DNA of 64,000 nucleotides from Amphiscolops sp. MND2022 (GCA_964187785.1 OZ076409.1:21392001-21456000), one strand, 5' to 3'; shown: positions 1 to 61,661, numbered from the stretch's first letter. Notes: generated by a model not told the origin, from the sequence alone. Program-made: numbers and translations.

Positions 1-3000
1 GCAATATCAGAATTTGTATTCGCTGAGTAAACCGAACAGTCATCGGCGTATTGGATAATTCTGCATTCGTCCGAGATGTGTTTTGTAATATCGTTAATGT
101 AGGTGTTAAAAAGTAATGGGCCAAGTACTGTTCCTTGCGGTACACCTTGAACGGTTTCGATGAAATCAGATACCGTATTATTGATAACAACTTGTTGACG
201 TCTGTGTGATAAAATGCTTAAATTTAGTGTCAGAGCATTGTCAATTCAGGCGAATAATTTCAATTTATTCATCAAAATTTGATGGGATACATAATCGAAT
301 GCTTTCGAAAGATTTATACATTCTCAATGAATAGAATCGTTATTGTCCACATGTTTAAGGATCGATTCGGTGAAATAAATGAGAGCATTTTGCGTTGATA
401 TCTTCTGGCGGAAGCCAAATTGGAAAGGAGACAGAAGTTTATCAGATGATAGGTATTGATTATTTTGTTTATGCAAAAATTTTTAAGTATTCTCGACAAA
501 CTGCTCGTTTTTGTAATGGGTCTGTAGTTCAAAGGGTTTATTGGATCATCTTTTTTATATAGAAGTGTAATGAGACCTTTTTTTAAAATTGAGGGAAATT
601 ATTGTGTTATATTATATTTGAATCTGTTATTCGATATTCAAGCGCATATTTTTGCTCAGCAGTATATAAAAAAGAAACAACTCATTTAGTACAGTAGGCG
701 TAATTATAAAATGAAATTAAAATTAGTAGCACTTTTGAACTTTTGCAAAAAATGGAAGCCATGCCAAAATTGGTTTTTTAATGTGGACATTGTTTGTAGA
801 GTAGTAACATGTGTTCCTTTGTAAATTTCTTCCATTTTCTTGCTTGTATTTGATTGTTCTAATTTCAGAGGGTAAGGAATTCGAACTTCTCAAACAGGTA
901 TAAAAGAATGTTCCTTGAAGAATCTTACTTGAACCAGGCTCTTTCAATATAGTTTTTTTGTTTCGATCATTCACTCGAAAACTCACTGTTGAGAGTTTCA
1001 AGTGATTCTGAAAAACTGAACCTACGTTTTTGAGAATTGAAATTAATAAATTAATAAGTCAAATGATTTTAAGTCAATTCTTTAATTCATAGCTAATACT
1101 TCTTCAGATATTCTCGAAGAGGTTGAGTATTTGTTTCTAGATCTGTAGAATACGGTTTGAAGAGTCCAATTCAGTTGTTTCTTAAAAGAAAGTAAAAGAG
1201 CAATACTGATGTCCGTTAAAAGAAGGTTACATTACTCAAAATGACTTTGAACAAGAGCATGAAGCTGCACTTTTAAACATTTTTTGGGTAGGTTGTTGCG
1301 AAGTGTTTGGATTGCTTTTATGCCAGGGGCCATTTTTTGAAGTAAACTTTGAACTTGAGTTTCGAAAGTTAGTTTGTTGTAGATGATAAAGCCTAAATAC
1401 TTCACTTCATTCTTAAGTTTTGTATTGGAACCGGCGACTTTAAGTTGATTATTGGATACGGTCATTTTTGGTGTTGTGAAACGTATCAGCTCTGTTTTAG
1501 ATGCATTCAGAGTTACCTGATTCGACCGAAAATATTTTTCTATGTTTTTGACACTGATTTGTAAATTCTCAAATGCAATATCAGAATTTGTATTCGCTGA
1601 GTAAACCGAACAGTCATTGGCGTATTGGATAATTCTGCATTCGTCCGAGATGTGTTTTGTAATATCGTTAATGTAGGTGTTAAAAAGTAATGGGCCAAGT
1701 ACTGTTCCTTGCGGTACACCTTGAACGGTTTCGATGAAACCAGATACCGTATTATTGATAACAACTTGTTGACGTCTGTGTGATAAAATGCTTAATTTTG
1801 GGGTCAGAGCATTGTCAATTAAGGCGATTAATTTCAATTTATTCATCAAAATTTGATGGGATACATAATCGAATGCTTTCGAAAGATTTATACATTCTCA
1901 ATGAATAGAATCGTTATTGTCCACATGTTTAAGGATCGATTCGGTGAAATAAATGAGAGCATTTTGCGTTGATATCTTCTGGCGGAAGCCAAATTGGAAA
2001 GGAGACAGAAGTTTATCAGATGATAGGTATTGATTATTTTGTTTATGCAAAAATTTTTAAGTATTCTCGACAAACTGCTCGTTTTTGTAATGGGTCTGTA
2101 GTTCAAAGGGTTTATTGGATCATCTTTTTTATATAGAAGTGTAATGAGACCTTTTTTTAAAATTGAGGGAAATTATTGTGTTATATTATATTTGAATCTG
2201 TTATTCGATATTCAAGCGCATATTTTTTCTCAGCAGTATATAAAAAAGAAACAACTCATTTAGTACAGTAGGCGTAATTATAAAATGAAATTAAAATTAG
2301 TAGCACTTTTGAACTTTTGCAAAAAATGGAAGCCATGCCAAAATTTGTTTTTTAATGTGGACATTGTTTGTAGAGTAGTAACATGTGTTCCTTTGTAAAT
2401 TTCTTCCATTTTCTTGCTTGTATTTGATTGTTCTAATTTCAGAGGGTAAGGAATTCGAACTTCTCAAACAGGTATAAAAGAATGTTCCTTGAAGAATCTT
2501 ACTTGAACCAGGCTCTTTCAATATAGTTTTTTTGTTTCGATCATTCACTCGAAAACTCACTGTTGAGAGTTTCAAGTGATTCTGAAAAACTGAACCTACG
2601 TTTTTGAGAATTGAAATTAATAAATTAATAAGTCAAATGATTTTAAGTCAATTCTTTAATTCATAGCTAATACTTCTTCAGATATTCTCGAAGAGGTTGA
2701 GTATTTGTTTCTAGATCTGTAGAATACGGTTTGAAGAGTCCAATTCAGTTGTTTCTTAAAAGAAAGTAAAAGAGCAATACTGATGTCCGTTAAAAGAAGG
2801 TTACATTACTCAAAATGACTTTGAACAAGAGCATGAAGCTGCACTTTTAAACATTTTTTGGGTAGGTTGTTGCGAAGTGTTTGGATTGCTTTTATGCCAG
2901 GGGCCATTTTTTGAAGTAAACTTTGAACTTGAGTTTCGAAAGTTAGTTTGTTGTAGATGATAAAGCCTAAATACTTCACTTCATTCTTAAGTTTTGTATT

Positions 3001-5322
3001 GGAACCGGCGACTTTAAGTTGATTATTGGATACGGTCATTTTTGGTGTTGTGAAACGTATCAGCTCTGTTTTAGATGCATTCAGAGTTACCTGATTCGAC
3101 CGAAAATATTTTTCTATGTTTTTGACACTGATTTGTAAATTCTCAAATGCAATATCAGAATTTGTATTCGCTGAGTAAACCGAACAGTCATTGGCGTATT
3201 GGATAATTCTGCATTCGTCCGAGATGTGTTTTGTAATATCGTTAATGTAGGTGTTAAAAAGTAATGGGCCAAGTACTGTTCCTTGCGGTACACCTTGAAC
3301 GGTTTCGATGAAACCAGATACCGTATTATTGATAACAACTTGTTGACGTCTGTGTGATAAAATGCTTAATTTTGGGGTCAGAGCATTGTCAATTAAGGCG
3401 ATTAATTTCAATTTATTCATCAAAATTTGATGGGATACAGAATCGAATGCTTTCGAAAGATTTATACATTCTCAATGAATAGAATCGTTATTGTCCACAT
3501 GTTTAAGGATCGATTCGGTGAAATAAATGAGAGCATTTTGTGTTGATATCTTCTGGCGGAAGCCAAATTGGAAAGGAGACAGAAGTTTATCAGATGATAG
3601 GTATTGATCGTTTTGTTTATGCAGAAATTTTTAAATATTCTCGACAAACTGCTCGTTTTTGTAATGGGTCTGTAGTTCAAAGGGTTTAATGGATCATCTT
3701 TCTTATATAGAGGTGTAATGAGACCTTTTTTTATATTGAGGGAAAATTTTGTGTTTTATCATACCTAAATCTGTTATTCGATATTCAAGCGCATATTTTT
3801 GCTCAGCAGTATATGAAAAAGAAACAACTCATTTAGTACAGTAGGCGTAATTATAAAATGAAATTAAAATTAGTAGCACTTTTGAACTTTTGCAGAAGAT
3901 GAAAGCCATGCCAAAATTGGTTTTTATAATGTGGACATTGTTTGTAAAGTAGTAACATGTGTTCGTTGATAAATTTCTTCCATTGTTCTTGCTTGTTTTT
4001 GATTGTTCTAAATTCAGAGGGTAAGGAATTCGAACTTCTCAAACAGGTATAGAAGAATGTTCCATGAAGAAACTTACTTGAACCGGGCTCTTTCAATATA
4101 ATTTTTTTGTTTCGATCATTCATTCGAAAACTCACTGTTGAGAGTTTAAGGTGATTCTGAAAAGCTGAACTTCCGTTTTTGAGAATCGAAATTAATAAGT
4201 CAAATGATTTTGAGTCAATTCTTTAATTCATACCTAATACTACTTCAGATTTACTCGAGGAGGTTGAGTATTTGTTTCTAGATCTGTAGAAAACTGTTTG
4301 AAGAGTCCAATTCAGTTGTTTCTCAAAAGAAAGTAAAAGAGCAATACTGATGTCCGTTGAAAGAAGGTTACAATATTTAAAATGACTTTGAACAAGAGCA
4401 TGAAGCAGCACTTTTAAACATTTTTTGGGTAGGTTGTTGCAAATTGTTCGGATTGTTTCTATGCCAATGGCCATTTTTCAAAGTAAACATTGAACTTGAG
4501 TTTCGAAAGTTAGTTTGTTGTAGATGATAAAGCCTAAATACTTTACTTCATTCTTAAGTTTTGTATTGGAACCGGTGACTTTAAGTTGATTATTGGATAC
4601 GGTCATTTTTGGTGTTGTGAAACGTATCAGCTCTGTTTTAGATGCATTCAGAGTTACCTGATTCGACCGAAAAAACTTTTCTATGTTTTTGACACTGATT
4701 TGTAAATTCTCAAATGCAATATCAGATTTTGGATTCGCTGAGTATACCGAACAGTGATCGGCGTATTGGAAATTCTGCATTCTTCCGAGATGTGTTTTGT
4801 AATATCGTTATTGTAGGTGTTAAAAAGTAATGGGCCAAGTACTGTTCCTTTCGGTACACCTTGGAACGTTTCGATAAAGTCAGATACCGTATTATTGATA
4901 ACAACTTGTTCACGTCTGTGTGATAAAAAGCTAAAATTTAGTGTCAGAGCATTGTCATTGAAGCCGATTAATTTCAATCTATCCATCAAATTTTGATGGG
5001 ATACGGAATCGAAAGCTTTCGAAAGATCTATACATACTGAATAAATAGAATCGTTATTGTCCACATGTTTAAGGATCGATTCGGTTAAATAATTGAGAGC
5101 ATCTTGTGTTGATACTTCCTGGCGGCAGCCAAATTGGAAAAGGAGACAAAAGTTTATCAGATGATAGGTATTGATTATTTTGTTTATGCAAAAACTTTTC
5201 AAGTTTTCTCGACGAACTGCTCGTTTTTGTAATGGGTCTGTAGTTCAAAGGGTTTAGTGGATCATGTTTTTATAAAGAGGTGTAATGAGACCTTTCTTCA
5301 AATTGAGGGAAGTTTTTGTGTT
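1..5322 (-). repeat. Tandem array (period ~1574 bp; 3 full units plus a partial unit running off the window) of the 3' half of a CR1/L2-type LINE (RT + 3' UTR)
   Basis: Near-identical ORFs recur at 314/1888/3462, 723/2297 and 1232/2806. Unit junctions lie after about 608, 2182 and 3755. RT motifs: GVPQGTVLGPLLF, QYA(D/N)D, KYLG. Confidence 0.95.
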
Positions 5323-6910: not shown

Positions 6911-7550
6911 AGAAAGCATAGAGAAAACGACCAACAACTAACTCGTATCAGACGCTATTACAATCGACCGCAGAAAGAAATTGGAGAATGTAGAGTTGCC
7001 ATGAAAAAAGCCAATCCCAACGAACAGTACTATATGTAAAGGATTTCTTCGAATGTTTCTCCAATAGAATATCCGTTGCGTCAAAAAACTGCCAGCTCAT
7101 TGATCGTCGTGCTTATATGGCCACCTGTTGAAAAATGTATCATGGTAACAAGGTGATGATATCGAGGTCACTACAATCTAGCCTTCGAGAATTTTCGAGA
7201 TTTTCTCGCGTCAGATAATCAAAACGAAGATCATGGAATCCAACAACATGAACAATTTGTATGCCCCATCAAGACCAGGAGTTCATGGAAGAAAAACTCA
7301 TGAGACACCAGTATTTTATTTATAGTACCGTGGAAACGAATCAGATCAAATTGCGAATTTTGCGAGTACAATATGACTGAATTTACAACTAGAAAATTGA
7401 GACGTGTCCGACCATCACTCAAATAACCTGTTCATTAAATGCTTGCTAGTCGAGTGGTCTATTAAATTGACTTTCCAGGCTGTAACGCCTGCTATGTCGG
7501 ACAAACTGTGCGGCATTTGACCACACGGCTTGCTGGGCATGCGAGAAATC

Positions 7551-8131
7551 GGAATTAGTTCCAGTCTGTGGAATACAAGTTTGTAAAATTCTACAAACTG
7601 GTCCTAGGTGCTCCAGTTTGTAGAATTTTTTCTACAAACTGGATCCTCAAATTCTACAAACTGGACATCCTTCACACAAGATCCTGAGAGCACCACCGCC
7701 TAAAATCTAATGGAAAAAGACCTAAAAACTGGATTGTGGGCTATATCCGGTGTATGCACGCTCACCCTCACTGTCGCAAAGACACGCACCCACTATGATC
7801 GCTTCGCGATCTCCGTTCCCGCTAGGTCGTTGCTACCCTTCGACCTCGCTCAGCTAGATAGGAACAAAAGCGGCCCCAAGGAGCCGCGGGACACTAGAGG
7901 AAGTGGAGCATATCCGAGGGCCAAAAACATTATTGTTTGAAAACGCTAGGTATTTGAAAACATTGATTCGATCTCATTTTCTTTGACCATTTTATTTCGA
8001 TCTCAGTGACAGATTGCATATTCCCGCAAATTGATTCGATCTAAAGATGCACCGCCACTAGATATATGGAATTGCCGATTGGGAATTATATTGCCTGAAT
8101 TCCCTCCAATCCAATCGACAGAACAATTGAT
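7551..8131. mobile_element. Non-autonomous insertion with core A: left arm of TCTACAAACTGG repeats, right arm of TTGATTCGATCT type
   Basis: It interrupts the GIY-YIG coding region. 7753-8131 is highly similar to 8708-9081. Confidence 0.7.
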
Positions 8132-8385
8132 AAATTGTGGTTGACAAATCCCGAGATATCCAAAAATGCTCACACTTCAGGGCCTAAATATAAACCAGAA
8201 GTGCCGGGGGCCTAATCAAAGGGATGAACACCGTCAACGCCTTCTCACGATCAACGTATAGCCTTGTAATTTTGCTACAGTGCCAACACTGTCTTACACA
8301 TTCCATCGCGCACATATACTTTTGATAACATTTTTTTATTGGCAATATAAAATTGTTAAAATTCCATTTGTTTCATTCTATATAT

Positions 8386-8439
8386 TTTTCAGTTGCTGAA
8401 GATGAGTTTATACTCAAAACGCATTCAATAGTTTGAAAA
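8386..8439 (+). ncRNA. Decayed minimal type I hammerhead ribozyme of the Penelope-like element
   Basis: TTG-CTGAAGA-TGAG-TTTATA-CTC(A)AAAC-GC-ATT-CAA. It matches CUGANGA/stem II/GAAA/palindromic stem III except for two G>A changes. Confidence 0.6.
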
Positions 8440-8525
8440 TTGATCTTGTTAATTTCATATTTCAGGTATCGCTCGGGTTAAAAAGACACAAAACAATTCT
8501 GTGAACAGTACAGATTTGAATTTGT

Positions 8526-9083
8526 GGGGTATTTTGAGTATTTTGTGATCGATAGTTCATGTGATCAAAAAGCGAGGTCGAAAAAGTATCAAAAGTTTTG
8601 AGATCGAATTGTTCCGTTTTTGCTATGTTTTTGCTCCTGCAGAGCGTTTAGAAGCGTTTAAAAGATTTTAGGTTCTTTTCCCAACTGAAACAGAGTCAAA
8701 AAACGTTTATGCACGCTCACCCTCACCATCGCGAAGAGTAGTTTCCACTACGACCGCTTAGCGATCTCCGCTAGGTCTTTGCTCCTGTTCGACCTCGCTC
8801 AGCTTGATAGGAACAAAAGCGGCCCCAAGGAGCCGCGGGACACTAGAGGAAATGGAGCATATCCGAGGGCCAAAAACATTATTGTTTGAAAACGCTAAGT
8901 ATTTGAAAACATTGATTCGATCTCATTTTCTTTGACCATTTTATTTCGATCTCAGTGAAAGATTGCATATTCCCGCAAATTGATTCGATCTAAATATGCA
9001 CCGCCACTAGATATATGGAATTGCCGATTGGGAATTATATTGCCTGAATTCCCTCCAATCAAATCGACAGAAAAATTGATACC
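8526..9083. mobile_element. Non-autonomous element with core A and GATC-type arms (ends approximate)
   Basis: Core lies at 8708-8869. GAGATCGAAT in the left arm is inverted relative to ATTCGATCTC in the right arm. No TSD found. Confidence 0.55.
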
Positions 9084-9084
9084 G

Positions 9085-11290
9085 AGATCTTTCAGCAAAC
9101 AAGCTACAAAAATGATTATTGAGATGTTCAACCACGAAGAAACTTCTATGCATTTTATCTTTAAATGCGCTGTTTACAAAAACTTGAGAAAAGGCACAAA
9201 AATCGGTTCAATTGAAAAACTAAGAAGAAGAACAAGCCATGATATGATTAACCTGGTGGATTTCAGTGGCTTTGAAGAAATTCTCTTGTCTTGAGGCGAT
9301 AACTTTCTCAAACACTTTACCTGTATTCGAGGTTAATGATATAGGTCTATATGATGCATTCTGGACGTTTCGTTGACAGACGTTTCGGCGAAAATTTGGC
9401 AGCGGACGTTTCGGCGACAAAAGTGTCGCCAAAACGTCTTTGTTGCCGAAACGTCCTCTAAAAAGCTAAAAACGTTCCTTCTGGAAGCGAAAATATTAGA
9501 ATGTGGGGCCTATGCTGAGTATGCACGCTCCCCCTCACCGTCGCAAAGACCAGCCTCCACTACGATCGCTTCGCGATCTCCATACCCGCTAGGTCCTTGC
9601 TCCTGCTCGACCTCGCTCAGCAAGATGGGAACATAAGCGGCCCCAAGGGGCCGCGGTACTAGAGGAAATGTGAAAATATCCGAGGCACGTTTTATATTTT
9701 TAAATGATATCTTTTGTATGATGTACACAAACCCAAGTCTCCTGATAATTTATGTTGTAAACTTCATATATATGTTTCCGCCAATCCAATGAAGAGACGT
9801 TTCGGCGACAGTTTTCCTCCCACCCTGTTAAGAGATGTTTCAGCGACACTTTGTCGCCGAAACGTCCTCCGCCATATGGTTGTCGAAACGTCTGTCGCAG
9901 AAACGTCTTATTCCCTATATGATCTTGGATTGGCGTAGTCTGATTTCCCGATCGTTTCGAGGAAGATAACATCGGCAGTATCCCATACCTAGTCACCTGC
10001 GGATAGGCATGATGAGTTGAAGAGAGTCCTGATCTACAGCTCTTACTCTCAGGTGTCTCAGCATGATTGGGTGGAAGCCACGATTATCAAACCTTTTGTC
10101 TGACGTTTCATATTTCTTGAAGAAGTGAAGTATCTCTCCTGTTGTTATTTCAGAGCTCAAAATGTTGTTACGTTCTTCATACAAAAAATGCTGCTGCCCT
10201 GTGTTATGCTCCTCGTCTGCTTCTAAGATCACGTTGCAAATTATATTAACGTGATCATAAAAAACATCATCAAAATCTGAGCTTTTTTTAATGAGGGGCC
10301 TTCCAGCAAAGAGGCTATTAAATAGAATATCCTCCATCTCATTTGGATATGTTGCAATGTTATCATCATTAGAGTGGAGCGGATCAACCTTGTTATACAA
10401 TTTACTTGCAAATGACCAATTAAACTCTCTCCAGATCTGCTTACATTGCGCAACATTGAGGTTTCGTGTTTTGTTGAGGATGAATTTCTGACACTCTGAT
10501 ATTCTTATGGTATCAAACTTCTCTTCAGCTAAATCCTTTGTTGCCTTTTTAGAGATGGTGTTGTTCTTCAGGTATGACTTCTTGGCAATCCTAAGTGCCT
10601 TTGATGCTTCTGTAAGTTCCTTTGTCCAGTATGGCTTGCAATGGGTTGAAAAATTTTTTACATTTTGAGAATTTCAGTGTGGCTTCATTGATAGTTCTGT
10701 CAATAATTTTCCATTGGTCCTGTGTTGAGCTATTGAAGAAGTCGATAGAAGCTTTTCCAGGGATGATTCTATGAATTCAGACCACCCTTTCCAGTCCATG
10801 CTGTCTAGATCGATCCTCAATTTGGGAGGTGGATTTTAAGTACCGGGGCAGGTTATCTTCATGGTTGTGCTTGTTGGTACATGTCCGCGGTTTGGAGCTC
10901 CGGAAAACCGTTCGACAACTGGATCTGTGAAGAAGTTACTAAACATTGGTTCTGTTTTATTAGAGCATATAAGAAAGTCAATGTTGCCATTCACATTGAA
11001 GGATAGAAATGTTGGGTCATCAGAGCTGATAATCGAGTATTCTCGGAAATCCAGTTTGTCGGCTAATTCCTCGCCGTATTGGTTGTCAATCTGATTACCC
11101 CACAGACGATTGCGAGCATTGTAGTCACCAGATACTATGATTACCTTTGCTTTGAATTGGCTAGCTTATTTCTTAGCTGTTTCTAAAATTTTGATGATTT
11201 CATTAACCGCTTCTTTGTGGTGAAGTTTAAGAAGGACTGATCCAACAACATACTTGAAACCTTTTCCACGAACGAGACCCAAGTTTTCTT
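9085..11290 (-). mobile_element. Degenerate APE-RT LINE fragment
   Basis: APE motif IIVSGDYNARNRLWG at about 11100-11142. RT N-terminal motif SYRPISLTSNTGKVFEKVI. Many stops and frameshifts. Confidence 0.8.
9356..9914. mobile_element. Mutator-like MITE with core A, GACGTTTCGGCGA subterminal repeats and a 9-bp TSD
   Basis: TSD CTATATGAT at 9347-9355 and 9915-9923. The arms carry inverted repeat arrays. It splits the PRSYRPISL motif of the host LINE. Confidence 0.85.
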
Positions 11291-11319: not shown

Positions 11320-13026
11320 AGAAGGCACCCAGCAAAGAGATCCTGAGTCTCCAGCTTTGTTTTCGGATTCCATTCAGGATCTGATTGACAGTTTGGAGTC
11401 GAAAATAAACTTATGGTACCTTGTAATGGAAATTTAAGTGATGATTACCGAACCGTTTTGAAAGATCTCAAACAAATTGTTGAAGCGGAAAGACGCTGGG
11501 ACTCAAAATTAAACCCACGAAATGTGAAATTTTTTCCCTGGTGACATCAGTGAAAAACGATGATCGACAATTTTACCATCTTTCCAAAATCTTTGCCCCG
11601 TGATCAAAACACCAAAGAAAGGTGGACTTATCATTCTTGGTTTACCGCTCGGCCCGAAATCACCAGCAGACTTTTTGGAAAAGAAAATTAATGATTTGGA
11701 AAAAGTTAACGGGATTGTTGAAAAACTAGATCCGCACTATGGTTTTTTTATGTTGAAACATTGCTTCAGTTTGTCAAAGTTGTTGTACTTCCTGAGAACC
11801 AGTACATGTTTTAATCATCCAGTTTTCTTGAAGAAATATGACAAAATCGTGCGCGACGGGCTTTCCAAAGTGTGTAACGTGAACTTCGACGATACTTCGA
11901 GTCTGGCTCATGCCTGGCTCTGCTTGCTGAGATGGGTGGTCTTGGGGTTTCATCCGCATCATTAATAGCACTTCCCGCCTTTTTGGCCTCAGCTTTTGGT
12001 GCGAGTGATTTTCTCACGACGAGTTTCTCAGACACATTCGAAAATGTTTCGTTTACAAAAGCGCTTGAGAAGTGGTTGAATTTGACGAATGAACAGGAAA
12101 GTCCTCTCGATGGAACTCAGAAAATTGGACACACTCTGTCTACGTCAAAACCACCCAAGATTTGATTTCTAGAATGGATGACAAACGTTCGAAAGTTTTT
12201 AATGCTCATCAAGGCCAATTCGGGTCTCAATAGCTGAACGGGTGGCTGTAAAGAGGTCGAACTTTTCTGGTCGAAAGGACAGAGGTCGAACCTTTTGATC
12301 GAATTGCAGGGATCGAATGGAATGCGGTCGAATTTTATCGTATTTGTTGTATGGCTTGGTCGCTTCGCTCCCTTCACCAAGTAGCAACATTGAGGCATGG
12401 CCATATGGCACGTCGCTCCGCTTTGCTTCGCTCCTGCATTCAGGGCACTTGGAGTATGTGAACATATCTGACTACGTTATAAAAATTTCGATCCGAGATG
12501 TTTCGACCCCATTCAAAAATTTGGTATGTCGACCTGAGTACTAACTCTGATTTTCGATCCCGTTCCTTCGACCCACTTCCGACCACCCGCGTGGACTGTA
12601 CCGAACTGATGGCAAACGCCCAGACGGTGTTACCATGATTCCTTGGGAAATGGGTAAACAGCTGGTGTGGGATGTCACGGTTGTGGATGCTCTTGCACCC
12701 AGTCGCTTGAATCAAGGCTCTATATGCAACCCGGGAACCACCGCCACCAAGGCTGAAGCGCGCAAAATTGAGAAGTATCGCGAACTATTAGAAAATGGAT
12801 ACATTTTTTAACTGGTTGCCTTGGAAATACAGGGTTCTTGAAGGCGAGAGCAGTGAAATTTACATCACGCGTCTCTGTAAAATGCTCTGTCGTTCGCACG
12901 ACGATGAGCGAGCAGGCAGCTTTTTGAAGCAACGGATTTCAATGGCTCTTCAGATCGGCAATGCGGCCTGTATTCTAGGAATTGTGAGCGACAGAGATGC
13001 GTTCGAAGAAATTTATTACATATAGC
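11320..13026 (+). mobile_element. CRE-like non-LTR retrotransposon relic (RT C-terminus plus restriction-like endonuclease), copy 1
   Basis: CFSLSKLLYFLRTS, GGLGV, RTDGKRPDGVTMIPWEMGKQLVWDVT, FLKQRISMALQIGNAACILG. Similar to ORF 15448-16605. Confidence 0.85.
12240..12588. mobile_element. GGGTGG-ended MITE (core B), inserted in CRE-like copy 1 with an adjacent deletion
   Basis: Highly similar to 13923-14271. Ends GGGTGGCTG...GACCACCC, with GGTCGAA subrepeats. Confidence 0.85.
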
Positions 13027-13149: not shown

Positions 13150-15150
13150 TATCGGGTTCCCTACTTTCGTTGCCACTCAACTTTTCACTGTAGTAATAAA
13201 GGCAAGAAGATGGCCAAGTGATTGGAAATGCTCACATAAAACGCCGATATATCAGTCTGGAAACCCCGAAAGTGTGGAAAATTATCGGCCCATCAGCATT
13301 TTACCACAGCTCTCACTTATTCTTGAAAAATTGCTCTACCGACACATATACCCGCAAGTGCGATTCTCAATCTGTGATGAACAACATGGTATCACAAAGA
13401 AGCGCTCTCCTATTACCTAGCTCTTACTCTATCTAGACGATTTGTACAACCAAAAATATTAACGCTTCTAGTTATGCTATCTACTTCTACTTTCGGAAGG
13501 CCTTCGATTTAGTTCCACATCATATTCTTCTGAAAAAACTGCCAAATTTTAGCTTTGATGAAACTTTTTTGATCTTATTCAAGTCTTACTTATACTCAAG
13601 GTCACAACGAGTATCAATAAATGGCTCCCTCTCCCAGATGGTGGATATTAATAGCGGTGTATTTCAAGGCAGTGTCCTCGGACCTCTTTTCTTCATTATT
13701 TTTATGAATGATTTTCCTGACAAAATTGTCAATTCCTCATGCTATTTCTTTGCAGATGATAGTAAATTACTGTCTCTTCTGACCAAACCTGATTTACAAA
13801 GGGATATTGATCATTTTACTGAATGGGCTTACAGGAACAAAATGGAATATAACATTGACAAGTGCAAGTCAATCTCTTTCGAGGAAACTTTAGCGTCGTC
13901 GGATCTTCTGTTTCTGAACGGTGGGTGGCTGTAAATAGGTCAAATTTTTCTGTTCGAAAGGACCGAGGTCGAACCTTTTGATCGAATTGCAGGGATCGAA
14001 TGGAATGCGGTCGAATTTTATCGTATTTATTGTATGGCTCGGTCGCTTCGCTCCCTTCGCCAAGTAGCAACATTGAGGCATGGCCATATGGCACGTCGCT
14101 CCGCTTCGCTTCGCTCCTGCATTCAGGGCACTAGGGGTATATGAACATATCTGACTACGTTATAAAAGTTTCGATCCGAGTTGTTTCGATCCCATTCAAA
14201 AATTTGGTATGTCGACCTGAGTACTAACTCTGATTTTCGATCACGTTCCTTCGACCTACTTCCGCCCACCCCTGAACGGTAATATTGTCCCCACCGTTGA
14301 CTCAATTGAAGACCTTGGAATCACCATTTCAAACACTATTACATGGGACAACCATATTCAGAAGAAAATGGTGGCTGCTAGAAAAGCTCATCACATCATT
14401 TCTTGAAGCGCTCAATTCCTCATAGTGTTAGTTCTTCCACGAAGCTTATGTACTACAGGTTGTGTGTTCAGAGTATTATACTATACGGATCCCAAATATG
14501 GTTCCCCTCCATTAATTACCGACGGAAGTTGGATCTATTCAATAAAGAATGCCTTTTTTGGGTATTATATATAATATAATTTCTAAAATGAAGCCCCTCT
14601 TTGCGGGCAGGTATGAAACAGAACAATTTAAGAACAGTTACAATATGGTGGAAGCATACATATTAGGCAGGATCGCCTACGGCAGTTTTTTGGGTAACTC
14701 GTTTACATAATTATTCACAGCAGCTGGCAGCGTCAAATACCCTACCCCTATTATTCTATTTGGATCTAAATGACATGGACTTCCTCAACAAGGCCATAAA
14801 TAACAAATATGACCTAAATCTCAGCACCTTTATTTGTTTCAGCAAACGTTGCAAAGATCTCAGAAATTCCAAATACCAACAACTCCTGCCAGTCGAAAGA
14901 TGTCGCAAATTCTCCACGAGAGACTCCTTCTTCCAACTTCCTCGCCACAAAAAAGATTGACATTTTTGACCCAACTGAAAAATTTAAACATGAACTCATG
15001 GCATACCTACGCAATCAAGTCCCAATGTTCAATTTAGACCGAAGCTGCTCCTGGTTTATGAAATGTCTCTGTAGCATCTGCCGCTCTTAGATTTGATCCA
15101 CTCAGTTTGTAAGAGCCTACATTACAACTGCTTGAATGTTCGTTTATATA
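13150..15150 (+). mobile_element. 5'-truncated CR1/L2-like LINE (RT)
   Basis: NYRPISILP, FRKAFDLV, SGVFQGSVLGPL, FADDSKL, DLGI. Frameshifted. Confidence 0.85.
13923..14271. mobile_element. Mutator-like MITE (core B), 349 bp, 9-bp TSD
   Basis: Perfect TSD CTGAACGGT at 13914-13922 and 14272-14280. Termini GGGTGG/CCACCC. Confidence 0.9.
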
Positions 15151-22849: not shown

Positions 22850-22907
22850 GTAGGGCAAACACTTTTTAGAGTAATGCTTTGGAACCAGTTTTTGAGGAAT
22901 TATATAC

Positions 22908-23108
22908 AACAAGACGCCCGCTAAGCACCGGGATATTTTCCGCCCTGTTCGCCTTCACCAACTGAGCCATAGCTATTTTAGGAGGGGAATAGGATCTAAA
23001 GAATAAGATCTAAAATTTAGTGATTTTAGATCTTATTCCCGCCCTGAAATTTTAGATCTTATTCCCTTTAGATCTTATTCCCTTTTTTGACTTTAGATAT
23101 TATTCCCG
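22908..23108 (-). repeat. Family C Helentron-like 3' end plus a small TTAGATCTTATTCCC repeat element in PIF1 intron 2
   Basis: AACAAGACGCCCGCT...GATATTTTCCGC also occurs at 32430. Inverted and tandem 15-mers at about 22985-23108. Confidence 0.6.
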
Positions 23109-30188: not shown

Positions 30189-30409
30189 GTTATTGATCAA
30201 AGTTGAACTGTTGAATATATACGCATGCAATTAAAATAATGTATATACGCATATTAAAATAATCGATGTCTTCGTCATGTGTTGCGAAGCACCGCTTCGC
30301 CTCTGTGTAAATGTTTGTCAAATCATCGGTAGACTTCATGCATTAGAATGTGGAAAACGCTCAACATGGCACTACTTCGTTGTTCAGTAGGCTTTTCCCA
30401 AGAGATAAC

Positions 30410-31450: not shown

Positions 31451-32429
31451 TTGTCAAAACTATTTCCAATTTTTGACACTTCTGGTGAAACTATGTGCAA
31501 TAATATAACGACCCGGGATCGCTCAACCTCCCTAAAATTGCAATTGACCTAAATTAAAGCTTTTACCATTCTCAGTGCCACAAATTACCTCAAGAAATAC
31601 GCCTGAGACTAGGAAACCACTTTTTCCCCAACAAAAATCACAAAATATCTAATTTTTTATTTTTACCGGTACCGCTCTATGATGGCGACACGAGTATTAG
31701 CTCGCAAAACTACTTTTCTCAAGCCGAAATCAGCTATGGAAGCAAGGGGGTACTCTTTGACCAAATGAAAGTTTCGGAAAGACGCACAGTGCAGAAAAAA
31801 CTGAAATAAGGTAATTTCCACAATCAATAAGAAACTTCGTTAGTTCCATATGATGAAAAGTAACAAAGAAGTCACCCTTAAAACTCGGGAAACTTATTTG
31901 TTTTTCAGAAAACCTCAAAAACTAAAAATTGCGGGAAATGTTTTGAGAAAATTATTTTTAAAAATTCTAATGGAATTTTTCTCTTTTCTCGGAAAGTCGC
32001 ATAGTGCCGAAAAACGAAACGTGGCCAGCTGTCGCAGAAATATTAAATTAGGCGTTTCCTTCAAAATGGGCTCAGTTGAATCAAAGCACTTTTTTCATCG
32101 AACTTCTTTGCGTTTTTTAGTGCATTGGCTACTCTTCAGCCTCAAATTTATGTAGTTGTAGAACAGTTTGAGGCGGAAAATATCTCGCTGCTCAGCGGGC
32201 GTCTTGTTCTATTCCCAATTATTGCTCCAATAAATTTTTACAGCCTTGTGGGTTAGAAATAAGGTGTGCCGGGGGTGGGGGAAATGAGAAACATTACCCC
32301 GCACATTTTCGTCATAAAACAAAATGCGTTTTTGGAAGTGTTTTAAAAAATTATCGAAAATAGGCTCCTGTGGGGCACTAAAAATTCTGCTTCATGCTAC
32401 AATACTCAAAAACTTCAATGTTCAATAAA

Positions 32430-33001
32430 AACAAGACGCCCGCTATGCACCGGGATATTTTCCGCTATAAAAAAATGTAACGCTCCAGCCCGCATTCGAA
32501 CCCATGACCTCGTGACTGGCAGGCAGACACTACCAACTGTGCCACGGTGACTAGTTTATCGTTTCACTAAATGGAGTAAATAAAATGGACTAATTTTGTT
32601 TCTGTTATTTGCTCTTATGTTATTTGGTACGTAATCATTATTCACGGTACCAGTTTATACCGCCTTTAATTCTCGGACTAAAGCAAATATAACTACTAAG
32701 CGTAGACGGAGTTTCGCATTTGCATTTGAATGCAGGCGAAGCTCTCCTAGAACGAATAATTAACACTCATTCGCTTCATCTCAATAACTCGGCTTACGAA
32801 TGCATAATTACCACTCGCTCGTTTCATCGCACGAGAAAATAATTGTTGTCGGCAGCTTGAGAAATTTAAATCCCTTGCTTATACTCACTGCCGAACAAAA
32901 TATCTGAATTTTCTAGTAGATACTCGAATCACGTACAAAAATTTGGCAGAAAAAAGCGGCAAAGTCCAGATTTCAATATTTTTCCTGCTATCGCAGAAAT
33001 A
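32430..33001 (-). mobile_element. Chimeric Helentron-like element: family B 5' end and body, tRNA-like cassette (32482-32551), family C 3' end
   Basis: The body is the reverse complement of much of 38433-38790. The cassette has TGGCACAGTTGG and GGTTCGAATGC. The 3' end matches 22908. Confidence 0.75.
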
Positions 33002-35085: not shown

Positions 35086-37031
35086 TTTTTAGTCGGCGCT
35101 TTTCTGAGGAAAAGTGCCCGACTCTTACTGTGGCTAGTTTTTTTTTTCGTCAGATGTTCCTCGAGAAATGTCTGCACAAACAAATAACTGCTTACGCAGA
35201 GAGTCGTGGGATACTCACACCATTTCAATTTGGTTTTCGATCGAAAGTTTCTGCGCAAGATGCCATTTTGTATTTTATTGAAACAATCCAACACGAGATC
35301 GAAATTGGAAATATAGTTCATGCTGTCCTACTTGATCTATCTAAAGCTTTTGACTCACTTTCACATCAAATTCTTCTCAAGAAACTCGAATCGTTACATT
35401 TTTCACCTTCTTCGGCTACACAAATCGTGGAAAGTTTTTTAACAGGTCGATTGCAACAAGTCTCTCTGAATGGTGTTCTGTCTGAATGGATTGAATTGAA
35501 ACAAGGTGTCCCCCAAGGAACAGTCGCAGGACCATTATTTTTCAACCTGTATGTGAATGATCTTCCAGAACTTATAAGCACACCTGCTCATATATTACAG
35601 TATGCTGACGATTGTTTAGTTTTCTGTAGTGATAAAAAAATCTGAGATTGCTCTTGAAATATTGCAAGACAATGTATATAAATTAGAAGAATACTTTTGT
35701 CTGAATAAGCTGAGTTTAAACGGAAGTAAAACGGAATTCATCACCTTCTCCCTCAAAAATGATAAACGCCTCAACGACTCAGAAACAGTTACTGTGGGCT
35801 CCACCTTAGTAAAGAAATCAGACCATTGCAAATACTTAGGTGTAACCATTGATAAACACCTCGGGTTCCAAAAACAAGTTAAAAAGGTGCTGAAAAATAT
35901 GGCAGTTGGTATAAAAACTGTTGAAACTGTCCAACACAGGTTTCCAACTGGGGTACTTCTCATGCTTTCCACGAACTTGTGATGAGTCACTTGGAATTTT
36001 CTCTATTGTTTTCCTTCAAAGTTAGTTCTTCTTTGTTGCTCTCACTAGAAAAACAGATGAATTGGGCTTTGAAAAGCGTGTTTTCTCGTTCGAATATCAA
36101 GTCATCTCTTGAATTGAGAAAAAACAAAGGTATAATCAGTATACGTCACTTGATTATGTTCAAATCCCTGATTTACTTCTTCCAGTACATTAATAATAAA
36201 AAAAGCTTTCCAAAACCCGTTGAAGTTACCTACAGCAACATATCGATGGAATTCCCGTACGAATCAAGTTATTTATACGGGTAATTTTTCATCTGTTTCA
36301 ACTTCATCATTCTTTCATTGTACTGCACTGAAGTGGAACTCACTACCATTACATATGCGAGATCCAAGTGTGAGTCTACATGTATTCAAAAGTAGATTGA
36401 AAATTCATCTGGAAAAAGAGTCAAATGCAGTTCCTATTCAAGTAGCTAGTACCTGGCGTGATTTCCGCTTCAAATAAACCTGTCTGTCTTTCTTTTTAAT
36501 TGTTGTAAAGTTCGAGAAAACTACTTATGCTTGCATTAGTCATCTACACTTATTGTATGGTAAGCTGTCAGCTATCCCCTTACAATAATATAGTGTTGTC
36601 TTTCTCTCTCAGAATACAATCTCACTCTGATTGGGCCACTTTCCTTACAATCGAAACTACTAAAACTACTACCATAAGGCCAAGTCCGGTCAGCGGAAAT
36701 TAGTGCAAACCCCCCTTTCATTTTTCACTATTTTAACGTAACCTACAAAACCGGACGAGACTAAAGGGTCCCCCTTTCGATTTTTTTGGCATTGTGCGAT
36801 TTTTTTCGAAAGTTTTTTAATGTCTCAAAAGAGTCCCCCTTTTAAGTTTTTTGATATTTTGCAACAGAATATATGTTAATAAAGCCCTAAGGGTCCCCCT
36901 TTTACATTTTCGGCACTATGCGACATTTTCTGAAAGAAAAAAATTCAAAAATTTCAAGTTTTTTTCAAAAAAAGTCTTTTGCGCTTTTTGAGCCTTAGAT
37001 ATAGCGCCGACTTTAGACGTTCCCGTCTTAT
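35086..37031 (+). mobile_element. Family A element with a LINE inserted
   Basis: 5' subTIR AGTCGGCGC; 3' GCGCCGACT plus AGACG-TTCC-CGTCT hairpin at about 37004-37028. Confidence 0.8.
35155..36610 (+). mobile_element. 5'-truncated CR1/L2-like LINE related to the tandem-array LINE
   Basis: QFGFRS, DLSKAFDS, GVPQGT, QYADDC, KYLG. MAVGIKT and EKQMNWAL resemble MAIGIET and EKQLNWTL in the array family. Confidence 0.9.
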
Positions 37032-37530
37032 TATTTCTGCTTCAGCAGGTATATTATTGTAACCTCAAACTGTCTACTTTTTTATCAGTACAATTTTTCG
37101 TACGATACTGAAAAATTCAGATATTTTGTTCGGCAGTGACTGTTAGCGTGGGAATTAAATTTCTCAAGCTGCCGACGACTATTCAATTCTAGTGCGATGG
37201 AACGAGCGAGTGGTAATTATCCATTCGTATGCTGACGTCATTGAGATGAAGCGGGCGAATGTTCGTAATTGTGCTTTCGTTGCCCCGAGTTATTGAGATG
37301 AAGCGAATGAGTGTTAATTATTCGTTCGTTGAGAGCTTCGCATGCATTCGAATGCGAATGCGAAACTTCGTCTACGCTTAGTTCTTATATTTTCTTTAGT
37401 CCGAGAAGAAGTTAAGGGGGTGTAAACTTGTACAGTGATTAATTGTGCGCTAAATAATGATTAAACAAGAGTGTATTGGTATTCCAGATATGATTCCATT
37501 ATTAATGAAAGATTAAAGCGGAGGGGCCTA
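37031..37530 (+). mobile_element. Family B Helentron-like element (deletion at the 3' end)
   Basis: Similar throughout to 38433-38910. Confidence 0.8.
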
Positions 37531-38432
37531 CGTAGGGTACAGCCAAGCTTCGCTTTCGTTAGTCAGAGGTAATAAAGATATCAGTGCCGCTGTGCCTATC
37601 GACTATATTAAGACATCTACGTCAGAAATTAATTGGAACATTTGTTCTTTGCCTGCTAGGCTAAATTTAATTCATGTCATTCATTAGATCACGTACGATT
37701 TCAGAAAAACGAACAAAAATATTTTTAGAGCTAAAACAGTCACGTAAGTTTGTGTTTCCCGTTTTTCTTTTTCGATCACAAACTTTTAACGTTTCATGTT
37801 TATTTGATCTTCTTTCTGTATCGTGCGGCGCAATCCGAAGTCTCCATATTTTTTGTTGCGTTTTTTTTCAGTCTAAAAATTAGTCAGAGATAGTTGGTTC
37901 CTGTAATTCACGTGAACGCACGTAGTAATGTAATCTATGGTGCTTATCTAAATTTTTCTTCTAAGCCAGTGTCATCAAAGCCAATGGAAATAAAAAACAG
38001 CGAAAGTTGAATAACCGATATCAAAAAAGCGGAAGAGGTACATGGGAAAAAGACTGTAATACGTAAATGACACTCGTGTTATGTAAAAATTTTGGTCACG
38101 CCCTTTTGTGCCAGTGTTTTTAGCTAGGTGTGTGTGTGTGTGCTAGGCAAAGTGGATGCACTTCATCGCACCCCTTAAAGTTCAAAAGAAATAGACTTGG
38201 CAGTTATACAATTTGACGCTCAAATTGATGCCATTGCGATCAAAATGCGTTTCGTGGAATTTGTATGAATATAATTATAGGGGCCACGCCATATCGTATC
38301 CACATTAACGTCTTTCGAGGCGGATCAGAGCAATAAGATGTTTGCTCTAAAAATTAGACCTATTTTACAACCATTTTTTGAAATGAATACCCATTTATTT
38401 ACTAGACATTAAAATGGCGCCCATTTTATTAA

Positions 38433-38910
38433 TATTTCTGCTTTAGCAGGAATGTTATTGTAACCTCAAAGTTGGTCCTTTTTTTTTTTTCAGTCGTCAA
38501 ATTTCGTCCTACTGAATAATTCAGATATTTTGTTCGGCAGTGAGTGTAAGCGTGGGAAAGCTGCCGACAACAATTCAATTCTAGTGCGATAGAACGAGCG
38601 AGTGGTAATTATCCATTCGTATGCTGACGTCATTGAGATGAAGCGAATGAGTGTTAATTATTCGTTCGTTGAGAGCTTCGCCTGCATTCAAATGCGAATG
38701 CGAAACTTCGTCTACGCTTAGTTATATTTTCTTTAGTCCGAGAAGAATTAAAGGCGGTGTAAACTTGTACAGTGATTAATTGTGCTCTAAGTAATGATTA
38801 AACAGGAGTGTATTGGTATTCCAGATATGATTCTTTTATTAATGATTTTTTGTTTTAAAAAAATAAAGATTAAAGCAGAAATAGTACTGAGCCCCGGAGG
38901 GGCCTATTTT
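38433..38910 (+). mobile_element. Family B Helentron/DINE-like element, complete
   Basis: Perfect 13-bp subTIR TATTTCTGCTTTA/TAAAGCAGAAATA (38433-38445, 38871-38883), 3' hairpin GCCCC-GGA-GGGGC, then a T run. No TSD. Confidence 0.85.
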
Positions 38911-42975: not shown

Positions 42976-44169
42976 GCAAGTGTTTGCGAAGCACGGCTTC
43001 GCCTCTGTGTTGAATATAGTTCTAACAATGTCTTAATTATCAGAAGCTTTGTAAGCTGCCTACTAAGATTACCGTAGTTTAGAAAAGATTCCCTCGTTAC
43101 CGTAAAAATGGAACGAACAACAGCTAACAAATTTAACACAGTTAACAACCCTGCTTCGAGGCGCCAACCAATTTATTCGTACCAATTTTCCTCTGAGGAC
43201 ACGGTTGAATGATTACAAAATGTTTCACACCACTCTCACCGACCAATTTTAATTTGAAAAAACAGATCGAGCTCTATGCTACAAAGGTAACGTCAAAGAT
43301 TGTTACGGTTTAATATGGTAGACAAAATTATTGTAAAACGTGACTTATTCTACGAACTCTGGGGACAGTTAAAAGATTAAGTCTCGTTCTAGAATAGTTA
43401 GTTTTATCTACCATCTTAAGGTCTAAGGGATTGTAATGACAATTTTCAAGTTTGCTACCAAATATCAATACACGTGATTTTTTTAATGTGAACTTTCTAG
43501 AATTTATGCAATGTGTCCACATTCAGAAAATCGCGATTGTAGGTTGATGAAAAGTCTGCTGTGATGTGCTTCCCTTCAAATTTTCATTTGAAACCATTTT
43601 TTGGCAATGCAAGTATTTCAACCTCGAAAAGAGGTTTTTTGAAATGGAAATGCAATGGGACTTGAGCTTTAGATGTCTAAGGTAACTTTCGAGCGAACAC
43701 TTTTGAAATTGATTTCAATTCCCACCGAGTTTCTAACAACTCAAATTCGTGTTTAATTCGAATCAAACAGTTTAATTCGCATTAATCAGAGAGCGGTAAA
43801 GTATCCTATCAGCCACATTAAAGAAAAAATTCTTTGCCATGCTTTTTTAAAAAACTACTTTCATAGAATTCCATGGCAAAAGTTTTATTCTAAAGTATTT
43901 TATTCTAAAGTATTCAAAGTTGAAACTTGACCAGTCGAAAACGATATAAGTCAGTGTCCGTTTGAATTTTAGAATGAATAAAGGTGAACCTGGTGGAAAA
44001 ACTAATACACAAAATTTAATTTTGAAAACTTAAAAATTACCATCTTATTGGAATTAACTCTCGACATTTTTACTGGAGATTTACCCGATGTGCTATTTTG
44101 CCCTTGCTGTCTAATATTTCTATCACCAGACTTCTTTGAAAAAATTGTAGATACTGAGAAATCTCTCAT

Positions 44170-55657: not shown

Positions 55658-56780
55658 CTAGTTCAACCAAAAAATGAAACGCACAAAATATTCACTCTTC
55701 AAAATCGTAATATCTGATTTTTCTGAGTTTCTTGGCTTCGAAAAAAGTTGCCGAATTGAATGACTGACAAGCTGGTTTGCAATGTTCATGGTTGTTTTAA
55801 ACATTTGTTGACAAATATTTGATACTTTGAGAGCTCAAACATATTCATGCGTTCCGTTTTTAGTCGGCGCTTTTCGAAGAAAAACGCAGACTATAGTAGT
55901 GACTTCTTTTTTTTTAAAGACCAACGAACTGACAGATTTTATAAATTTTATAAGTTGGTACTAAAACTACACTAACACTAAACTGTGTCACGCTACTTCA
56001 CTGCCACCTGTCCACTACGGCTTTTTCGAGGTCTGACAAGCAGAATGACATGGGTTCGAGTCCCGCCATGACCAAAATTTTTTTGTGCAAATTTTTTTCG
56101 GCTTTGTGAGACTTTTTTCGCAAATATCTCCAAAGGGTCCACCCTTCATTTTTTTTGTCTATTTTGCAAAAGAATGGATGTTAAAAAACTTGCAAAGGGC
56201 CCCATTTTACATGTTTCGGCACTATGCGACTTACGGGAGACCAAAAATTTTTAAAAAATTTCAAAAAAAATCGGAATTTTTTTTTCAATTTTTCCTCAAA
56301 CGGGTACTGTAGAAGAGAATACTTGACACTTTGAAGTCCTTTTGTTATTTTTGAGCCTTAGATATGGCGCCGACTTGGGCCGTTCCCGGCTTGTTTATGG
56401 TTAAACTAGTACTAGGTGAACCAAAAAACAGAACGCACAAAAAATTTTATGCTCTCAAAATGTCAAATATTTGTCAACAAAATGTTTCAAAACAACTTTG
56501 AACGCCGAAATTCAGCTTGTCAATCATTCAATTTGACATTGTTTTCACCCATTTGAGTGTCAAAGAACTTTTACACCTGAAGTGCCAACAAAGTGACTGG
56601 TAATAATGTCTAGACTTTCTCGGAAAGTTTAAAGCATGCTCTGTTGAAGATGTGGTTACGTAATGAAAGCTTTGAATGCTCGACCGAAAAAGTGAATGCT
56701 TAACAGCGAATTGTTTACAAATATTACCATTTTTGAACACTGAAATATTTGTGCGTTCCGTTTTTTTTTGGTTCACGTAG
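55658..56780. mobile_element. Two adjacent Tc1/mariner-like MITEs (55658-56409 and 56412-56780) sharing a TA
   Basis: TA-CTAGTTCAACC...GGTTAAACTAG-TA-CTAGGTGAACC...GGTTCACGTAG-TA, with long inverted arms. Confidence 0.8.
55857..56395 (+). mobile_element. Family A element, complete, inserted in a T run of the MITE; carries a B box
   Basis: AGTCGGCGC (55862-55870)/GCGCCGACT (56367-56375), hairpin 56379-56390, GGTTCGAGTCC at about 56053. Confidence 0.9.
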
Positions 56781-58938: not shown

Positions 58939-59985
58939 GAACTCATATCAAGCGAAAACTCATGTCAATTTGAAAAAGCGACAACTCGTATCAATTTGAA
59001 AAAGCGACAACTCGTGTCAAACGATTACTCATCCTTAGTCCAGATTGCTTGAACTTTTTACATGCTGCATGGAAACATGCAGGCTAATTTTTTACAAAAC
59101 ATGGAAAATTCCGGGAGCCTGCATGGAAACATTTTCAGGATTAAAATGCAGCCTCCACTATTTGAATTAAAACGGAAAACAATTCCACTTCTTCACCGCC
59201 GCGATCACATTGTTTTCACGCGTAAGTTTCTCAGGTAAGTGCCTTATGTAATCACCGTTAGTCAAGTAGCACGCTGACTATGACGCTACTTTGAGACTTA
59301 TAATGTGACTGGGGTTTTTGCATTAAAATGGCGGTGAAATTGATGAAGGTATCAGCTGCTTTCAAAATTATAACGGCGTCGTAATGAAACCTGCAAAACA
59401 TTGCGGCGCAAAATTGCCGCCAAATTTAGGATGCATTTTATAGGCGGCTTGACAAAATTAAATTGAATCAGTGAAGTTTTAATGCATGGACGTTTCTTTG
59501 AGAATTTTTATAAAATCATGGAAAATTAGCTTGGTAACCTACAAAAACATGTAAAAAGTTCAAGCAGTTCCAACCAGGGATATTAATAAAAACTCATATC
59601 AGAAGAATAAAATCTACCTACTGAAGTTCATTCCAAATTAATCATTAGATCATTAGGGGAAGTTTGTTAGTTGATAAGTAGTTATCAGAAATTATAAACA
59701 GTGCCATGTTTCTACAGTAAATATCAGCGTAATGGATAATCACTTCCTTATCACACCTTTGAGCAAAGCGCATAAAATGCGAAATAATTCCAAATAAACT
59801 TTGGAATTTCTAATTGCAGCAACTTATAAATTGCAGTTGAGGTTGAATTCAAGTGTTTCTAACATATTGGCAAACCTGATATGAGTTGGTGCTTTTCCTG
59901 ATTTGATATGAGTTATCGCTTGGTATGAGTTGTCGCTTTTTCAAATTGATATGAGTTATCGCCTGATATGAGTTGTCGCTATGCC
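58939..59985. mobile_element. Foldback-like element with inverted AACTCATATCA arrays, containing a nested TIR element (59033-59579)
   Basis: The arms are reverse complements. The nested element has a 19-bp inverted repeat TGCTTGAACTTTTTACATG and AT on both flanks. Confidence 0.7.
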
Positions 59986-61315: not shown

Positions 61316-61661
61316 GGGAACGTTTATTTAGGCCCGATAAACTGAGGCCCGATAATGAAATGTTATCTGAGGCCCAAAAATTTGTTCATCGAACTTTTTA
61401 TAACGTAGTCAGCTATATTCACATATCCCTAGTGCCCTAAATGCAGGAGCGAAGCGAAGCGGAGTGACGTGCCATATGGCCATGCCTCAATGTTGCTACT
61501 TGGCGAAGGGAGCGAAGCGACCGAGCCATACAACAAATATGCTAACCTCTTCAGATAAATTAAGTTAAATACATATTAGCTGATATAATATCTGACGCTA
61601 ATAGTCACCAAATTGATCGGGCCTCAAATTACACTATCTTCGGGCCTCAAATATGCTACCC
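61316..61661. mobile_element. MITE with GGG/CCC ends and AGGCCCGA subrepeats, carrying core B in reverse
   Basis: Flanks GGTCTTCA/GGTCTACA (7 of 8). 61388-61541 closely matches the reverse complement of about 14022-14172. Confidence 0.85.

Follow-up and report, generated by a model that had tools for sequence, protein, structure and literature searches.

Introduction

In corals of the genus Acropora, the families of MITEs (short for miniature inverted-repeat transposable elements) known as CMITEs carry different terminal inverted repeats (TIRs) around a better-conserved interior, the origin and function of which are given there as unknown (PMC2872659). Galileo of Drosophila mojavensis, which has long Foldback-like TIRs, includes chimeric copies whose two TIRs do not match and which lack a target-site duplication (TSD); one central region is found with the TIRs of three subfamilies, for which ectopic recombination and conversion were proposed (PMC3573991). 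The Mutator/Foldback element Tm1 of Meloidogyne (Phantom subclass) combines a TSD of 9 bp with asymmetric outer ends and with composite TIRs built from repeats of 13-15 bp, and its short non-autonomous forms carry an internal hairpin cargo (PMC3169594). Pack-TIRs fill gaps by switching template to nearby sequence, mostly within less than 5 kb, with microhomology (PMC8277862). Here we describe, in one stretch of 64,000 nucleotides from Amphiscolops sp. MND2022 (GCA_964187785.1 OZ076409.1:21392001-21456000; hereafter the window, in whose positions all coordinates are given), two internal segments, cores A and B, that lie within small transposon-like elements. The TCGAA arm type is paired with both cores, and each core is also found with unrelated arms. 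Every conclusion is carried by six core-bearing copies, three of core A and three of core B.

As in the CMITEs, the internal region is more conserved than the arms across families. By description, CMITEs are ~100 bp long and of the piggyBac type, with TTAA, CC[C/T]T ends and 13-14-bp TIRs, whereas the present elements measure 346-559 bp and have 8-9-bp non-TTAA duplications, GGG/GGA/GCA termini, modular repeat arms and two cores (PMC2872659). The arms that cannot be aligned and the two cores that cross shells set this locus apart from the precedents above. On the sequence evidence presented below, we consider it fairly probable that the core-bearing elements are non-autonomous cut-and-paste MITEs of the Mutator/Foldback type which swap parts of their interior through recombination or gap repair.

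Results

Core A is found in three copies within 1.9 kb

The copies of core A, and a leftward extension of the first, are as follows.

7753-7919, plus strand: core A copy 1, from BLAST and profile search
8708-8868, plus strand: core A copy 2, with a 5′ half of its own and a 3′ half near-identical to copy 1
9520-9685, plus strand: core A copy 3, with a GC hairpin at 9637-9654 and CTAG at 9659-9662, followed by 23 further conserved bases
7723-7752, plus strand: leftward core extension, matched only by copy 3 at 9489-9519

Pairwise identity between the copies is 83-86% (n=3; BLAST E values of 1e-45 to 1e-52), which bears out the three cores of ~165 bp reported in a first-pass annotation of this DNA, the end of copy 2 being set at 8868. 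The sequence GATCGC-TTC-GCGATC that had been noticed in the core is present, and inspection of the copies shows the two changes described for copy 2. A profile search of the 64 kb found no fourth copy (best other match, E=3). The clustering of three copies within 1.9 kb is significant (p=0.003); counted as two independent copies within 1.8 kb, it is borderline (p=0.054). The left boundary of the core is ragged, with 30 additional nt common to copies 1 and 3 (anchored alignment, 1/2000 shuffles).

Searches for known RNA or protein features gave 15 sub-threshold Rfam matches, none over a core, no tRNA gene with ARAGORN, and nothing below an E value of 0.25 with Pfam in the six frames of 8445-8872. 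A 29-base pattern had no match in prokaryote genomes. A gapped core pattern matched at least 1 viral contig and at least 119 metagenome stretches in sequence collections; when these 120 loci were compared by BLAST, the shared stretches did not exceed 31 nt, and we read the matches, all of at least 54% GC, as chance. Among the open-access papers listed, none dealt with core A or with the presence of GCGAAGC hairpins within MITEs of animals; supplementary repeat libraries could contain such families.

The arms around core A are of different types

The arms and shells of the three copies, designated elements 1 to 3, were delimited as follows.

7551-7752, plus strand: left arm of element 1, a TCTACAAACTGG motif array with internal inversions and no inverted partner on the right side
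Between 7551 and 7557, plus strand: left end of element 1, position uncertain
7920-8067, plus strand: right arm of element 1, with GAGATCGAA-type motifs on the minus strand; right end uncertain, at ~8060-8073
8544-8707, plus strand: left arm of element 2, with GAG[A/G]TCGAA motifs on the plus strand; terminus candidates at 8445 and 8475
9356-9914, plus strand: element 3, of foldback type, complete at 559 bp, its arms made of GACGTTTCGGCGA repeats
9347-9355 (left) and 9915-9923 (right), plus strand: TSD of element 3, exact over 9 bp, 0.0014 expected by chance

The arms of element 3 are complementary at 83% across 58 nt, and their inversion is significant (0/300 shuffles). The element is inserted in a minus-strand remnant of a reverse transcriptase (RT) of the long interspersed nuclear element (LINE) type, recognized weakly by Pfam (RVT_1, E 0.028), and its excision leaves a single open frame across the insertion site. 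The 9-bp TSD first described for copy 3 is exact, and among the three shells of core A only this one is a proven TIR element. With its 9-bp TSD, composite TIRs and hairpin cargo, element 3 closely matches Tm1; however, Tm1 is a single TIR family with a known transposase, whereas the present elements are not linked to a transposase, and by inspection their cargo is not a histone hairpin (PMC3169594).

The proposal that the three cores lie in different TIR-type shells holds in part. Three arm motifs are locally enriched (5 against 1.0, 10 against 0.8 and 9 against 0.7 expected), and core A is joined to three left-arm types and two right-arm types. When arms and cores were set against each other in 30 strict comparisons, significance was reached only between the two arms of element 3 and between the left arm and the core of element 2, in both orientations each; the left arm of element 2 also holds core pieces of 18 nt (direct) and 12 nt (inverted). 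The arms of element 1 show no significant inversion (p 0.63), and for copy 1 the search for an exact TSD gave nothing longer than 7 bp. The shells are also not three independent ones: because copies 1 and 2 have one recent right half in common, there are three left halves and only two independent right halves. In element 1, which occupies one site and has no clear TSD, the left arm is of the TCTACAAACTGG type and the right arm of the GATC type; this recalls the chimeric copies of Galileo. The TIR subfamilies of Galileo can, however, be aligned (77% in the case cited), and this element belongs to the P superfamily with a 7-bp TSD, whereas the arm motifs here are unalignable (PMC3573991).

Two candidate boundaries were considered. 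A 9-bp repeat flanking 8445-9071 is a candidate TSD of element 2 (0.07 chance matches expected), its right copy also resembling the flank of a Penelope-like element (PLE) described below, and a GGAATTAG-like site at 11070 was rejected as the far end of element 1 since no TSD matched it. Separately, a small foldback of GGGAATAAGATCTAAA repeats lies at 22985-23082; it ends in GGAATAAGA, the sequence that also closes element 3 on the right.

A second core is shared by two unrelated shells

A scan of the window for elements with a 9-bp TSD led to core B, which is present in three elements.

13923-14271, plus strand: core B element whose arms are TCGAA repeats, with GGGTGG at the termini and a 9-bp TSD that is exact; core B at 14018-14175
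12240-12588, plus strand: second copy of the preceding element, 95% identical, without TSD; core B at 12335-12492
61316-61661, minus strand: core B element in another shell, with GAGGCCCGA-repeat arms and GGG termini; core B at 61388-61545

Core B measures 158 bp and is 92-95% identical over the three copies, and 92-93% between the unrelated shells; it is joined to two arm types. Excision of 13923-14271 leaves an open frame that continues the RT open reading frame (ORF) 13437-13934, and the host ORF beside 12240-12588 is short of ~80 codons. The element at 61316-61661 is flanked by an 8-bp repeat with one mismatch; its arms are inverted to each other (0/300 shuffles) and unrelated to those of the 13923 element (99-284/300). 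It lies 47 kb from the other core-bearing elements, and core sharing is therefore not merely a local accident. These results extend the earlier suggestion of an internal module common to different repeat-arm types, which core B exemplifies elsewhere in the window.

Among 36 arm comparisons, four passed (<4/300 shuffles): three pairs within elements, and the right arm of element 1 with that of the 13923 element (14176-14271, 0/300). Modular inverted arms are thus significant in three elements and not in elements 1 and 2. An exact 9-bp TSD is present in two of the six core-bearing elements (9356-9914 and 13923-14271) and an 8-bp one, with one mismatch, in a third (61316-61661); in the others the TSD is absent or uncertain. 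The exact 9-bp duplications fit the Mutator-like assignment made at first, and TSDs of 8-9 bp fit Merlin or hAT as well.

A single family with rapid turnover of its arm repeats, in which homologous arms would have diverged where they stand and no family would have traded parts with another, would account for the ragged core boundary common to copies 1 and 3, for the G-rich termini and 8-9-bp duplications found across shells, and for the comparison of the left arms of elements 2 and 3, which scored 4/300. Yet the arm types are otherwise unalignable while the cores are 83-95% identical, and core B shows sharp edges against unrelated arms at 93% identity, which leaves too little time for the turnover of whole arms. 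We hold this explanation to be very unlikely. As a separate observation, CTGAAC precedes both TCGAA-shell insertions (12234-12239 and 13914-13919) in unrelated host ORFs, which may reflect a target preference or chance.

Copies 1 and 2 of core A form a mosaic

The comparison of copies 1 and 2 revealed two parts of the core with different relationships. In the 5′ half, 64 of 86 columns are identical (74%), against 79 of 81 (97.6%) in the 3′ half. To the left of 7819, seven informative sites join copy 1 with copy 3 and one with copy 2; to the right of 7839, one joins it with copy 3 and ten with copy 2. Hence a crossover took place within the core between 7819 and 7839 (Fisher p=0.0012). The features that bear on its direction are the following.

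8788-9081, plus strand: near-identical tract matching 7839-8132 with 7 differences in 294 nt, a putative local copy
7376-7546, plus strand: 5′ part of the host PLE GIY-YIG region, decayed (tblastn with homologue P0132, E 5e-18, 63% identity; Pfam GIY-YIG, E 0.2)
8075-8258, plus strand: 3′ part of the host PLE GIY-YIG region (homologue P0213, 62 residues without amino-acid gaps, two frameshifts)

The tract 8788-9081 spans the 3′ core and the right arm and extends ~60 bp into probable PLE flank, the stretch 8075-8132 of the 3′ PLE part being found in copy 2 too. An initial homologue search with the PLE piece returned no match. The PLE homologues later obtained match 7376-7546 and 8163-8258 (P0132 on the latter, E 1e-5), that is, both sides of element 1; by this homology, element 1 interrupts a predicted Penelope-like GIY-YIG region.

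Several observations suggest that 8075-8132 belongs to the PLE. The linker between the two anchors has 33-39 residues in all 101 homologues with both anchors (120 examined). Excision of 517 bp at the shared GGAATT leaves a linker of 36 codons, within this range, while a PLE that resumed only at 8133, after the shared tract, would by arithmetic leave ~16 codons. The homologue closest to the 5′ PLE piece runs without amino-acid gap over 8075-8258, with a score of 101 against 93 when 8075-8132 is left out (0/60 shuffles), and the best fit of homologue P0124 starts at 8075 (2/300 shuffles). Other results weigh against this assignment: the tests with a hidden Markov model (HMM; 281/500 shuffles) and with a position-specific scoring matrix (PSSM; 811/1000 shuffles) were not significant, so that two of the four tests of the PLE nature of 8075-8132 failed; two further homologues gain nothing from the stretch (60/60 shuffles); and 8 of 30 shuffles matched the piling up of best fits at 8075, which was seen for 24 of 105 linkers and for 13 of the top 40. 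All in all, we take 8075-8132 to be probable PLE flank that is native to locus 1, from which it follows that the right half of copy 2 was probably copied from copy 1. Recombination inside the core agrees with the first-pass annotation, where copy 1 was said to join the left arm of one family to the right arm of copy 2; the direction is probably the opposite, since the shared right half carries the flank of copy 1.

The tract fits the gap filling from a nearby template known for Pack-TIRs, whose filler is host sequence within one TIR family, whereas here it is mostly the interior and arm of another element (PMC8277862). The copy 2 part of these observations would be ordinary repair-driven chimerism. 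The alternative that the relation between copies 1 and 2 is an assembly artefact, either a second haplotype or a mis-join, draws on the near-identical tandem blocks at 1-5322 of the same window. The tract is, however, short, it carries 7 differences in 294 nt, its context differs on both sides, and copy 3 and core B would be unaffected; we judge such an artefact to be extremely unlikely.

Past the end of the PLE ORF, at 8397-8425, lies a degenerate minimal hammerhead-like motif (CTGAAGA, short stem, AAAC) without Rfam match; PLE terminal repeats carry a hammerhead motif (PMC4209133).

The hairpin and CTAG of the core are internal

A scan of the window for a hairpin followed by CTRR gave, on the plus strand, the three copies of core A only, and on the minus strand a single site, in copy 1 only. 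The GC hairpin followed by CTAG, reported at first from these cores, is therefore present in all three copies; its stem is perfect in copy 3 only, copies 1 and 2 having a C.A mismatch. Elements of the HLE1 type start with TC, end with a hairpin and CTRR and insert between A and T, and those of the HLE2 type have short terminal inverted repeats (11-18 nt) and a T|T target (PMC11417382).

We therefore weighed whether the core is, or was, the 3′ end of a Helitron, a rolling-circle element inserted in, or captured by, TIR shells. This would account for the restriction of hairpin plus CTAG on the plus strand to the three A copies and for the short stem that precedes CTAG in core B too. Helitron ends may also be present elsewhere in the window: at 30284-30308 and 42986-43010 the same palindrome, GCGAAGC-ACS-GCTTCGC, is followed by 8 shared bases, after which homology stops, and these two sites look like Helitron- or Helentron-type 3′ ends. 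In the cores, by contrast, the base that follows CTAG (CTTG once) is A or G in 6/6 and never T, and homology extends at least 20 nt beyond, even between cores A and B. The left boundary has no A|TC, unlike HLE1 (PMC11417382), the shared sequence opening with TAT, preceded by G or T in core A, and by G or A in core B. Terminal inverted repeats of the Helentron/HLE2 type were not found, as no inverted pair of at least 14 nt connects the core ends (repeats of 11-13 nt were not searched separately), and the consensus fold of the core pairs only 4 bp near its ends. A GC hairpin followed by CTAG is what the core shares with HLE1 and HLE2 (PMC11417382); here, however, the signature is internal, and the core lacks a TC start, an A|T or T|T target and short terminal inverted repeats.

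The core was thus rejected as a working Helitron end, for want of a 5′ TC and of a T after CTAG and because homology continues; the predicted hairpin with its CTAG is an internal feature and not a rolling-circle end. The rolling-circle terminus once envisaged did not withstand these data, and we regard a Helitron origin of the core as very unlikely. Compensatory changes were seen in 0/20 stem pairs (three sequences, two with a common right half, which gives little power), and no folding excess over shuffled sequences was found (z -1.55 to +1.58).

Cores A and B have a weak 3′ motif in common

Around CTAG, cores A and B have in common a 3′ motif of ~30 bp: 11 of 36 tests gave <25/500 shuffles, all in one orientation (best, 0/500). 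The core-B profile scores the three A copies above 592-599 of 600 random segments, and the profiles agree in four of six directions; the core-A profile finds nothing on two of the three core B copies. The sequences point to a link of weak to moderate strength between the two motifs. In addition, GCTTCGC/GCGAAGC occurs 20 times in the window against ~3.8 expected, nine times inside cores A and B. The core presumably resembles stable GCGAAGC mini-hairpins and half a CTCF site.

These data raise the question of a function. The core may be a selected cis-acting module (a transposition enhancer, a host-factor site or a single-strand hairpin signal), repeatedly captured by unrelated transposon lineages because it aids their spread; this is compatible with the exchange mechanism and adds a function to it. 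It would explain why both cores found in the window cross shells, why core B is kept at 92-93% identity between unrelated shells, and why A and B have the ~30-bp 3′ motif in the same orientation, together with the GCTTCGC/GCGAAGC excess. Against it stand the lack of compensatory changes among the three sequences and of folding excess, the breakage of hairpin 1 in copy 2 and of hairpin 3 in copies 1 and 2, the CTTG of one core B and the silence of the core-A profile on two B copies; moreover, common descent with recent capture explains the same data. We consider such a module unlikely, if worth keeping in view. More speculatively, the ~30-bp cis signal (short stem, CTAG and a conserved 20-nt tail) and one-strand GCGAAGC-type mini-hairpins could constitute an ancient transposition-promoting module that MITEs of different transposase lineages repeatedly take up, so that animal MITE families would be combinatorial assemblies of arm and core; we think this doubtful.

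In a third repeat family (32637-32919, 37028-37508 and 38429-38845), GCTTCGC is succeeded by TGCATT, which recalls the 3′ part of core B.

Other repeats of the window

The window is AT-rich (GC 32-43%) and contains LINE-like and long terminal repeat (LTR)-like ORF remnants and one PIF1 helicase exon, whose homologues indicate an animal host (best named PIF1 match, 52% identical). Tandem copies of ~1574 bp of a LINE RT fragment, 93-96% identical, occupy 1-5322 and represent either a true tandem or an assembly duplication. Two more TIR elements lie at 58940-59974 (91% over 55 nt) and 55754-56533 (81% over 108 nt); neither core has a match in them, and the ends searched have no TSD of more than 5 bp nearby. 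A GC-rich segment of ~40 bp is found in three contexts (22904-22944, 32172-32212 and 32430-32465), two of them inverted and 221 bp apart, the last adjoining a stretch that looks tRNA-like by eye.

Discussion

Exchange of interiors between cut-and-paste MITEs could proceed as follows. The motif arrays of the arms would presumably be binding sites for transposase, and Mutator-like transposases would mobilise the elements in trans. TCGAA-arm elements may be the source of the cores, which would once have formed their interior, since GAG[A/G]TCG motifs are present in core A and TTCGAT lies where core B borders on the other shell. The cores would have reached further shells through gap repair or ectopic conversion; held in common, a core would then permit recombination between neighbouring elements. 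At copy 2, a break would have been repaired on copy 1, 949 bp away, with copying of the 3′ half-core, the right arm and ~60 bp of Penelope flank.

Several points weigh against this model. Its whole basis is six copies in one window, where no transposase bearing these arms was seen. The inversion between the arms of element 2 is marginal (p 0.083 in the strict test, 12/300 shuffles in the loose one). The termini of elements 1 and 2 could not be fixed and no TSD was assigned to them, so that both are putative as mobile units. The link between the shells of cores A and B through a right arm comes from one of 36 comparisons.

The classification of MITEs rests on their ends, and interiors are usually treated as filler; for the coral CMITEs, the study cited leaves the origin and role of the conserved interior open (PMC2872659). 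If two cores cross unrelated arm types, structure-based Helitron callers could mislabel the cores, and similarity-based clustering would lump together families that are unrelated. The same arrangement would make the question of the interior testable, by arm-by-core counts and a deletion assay.

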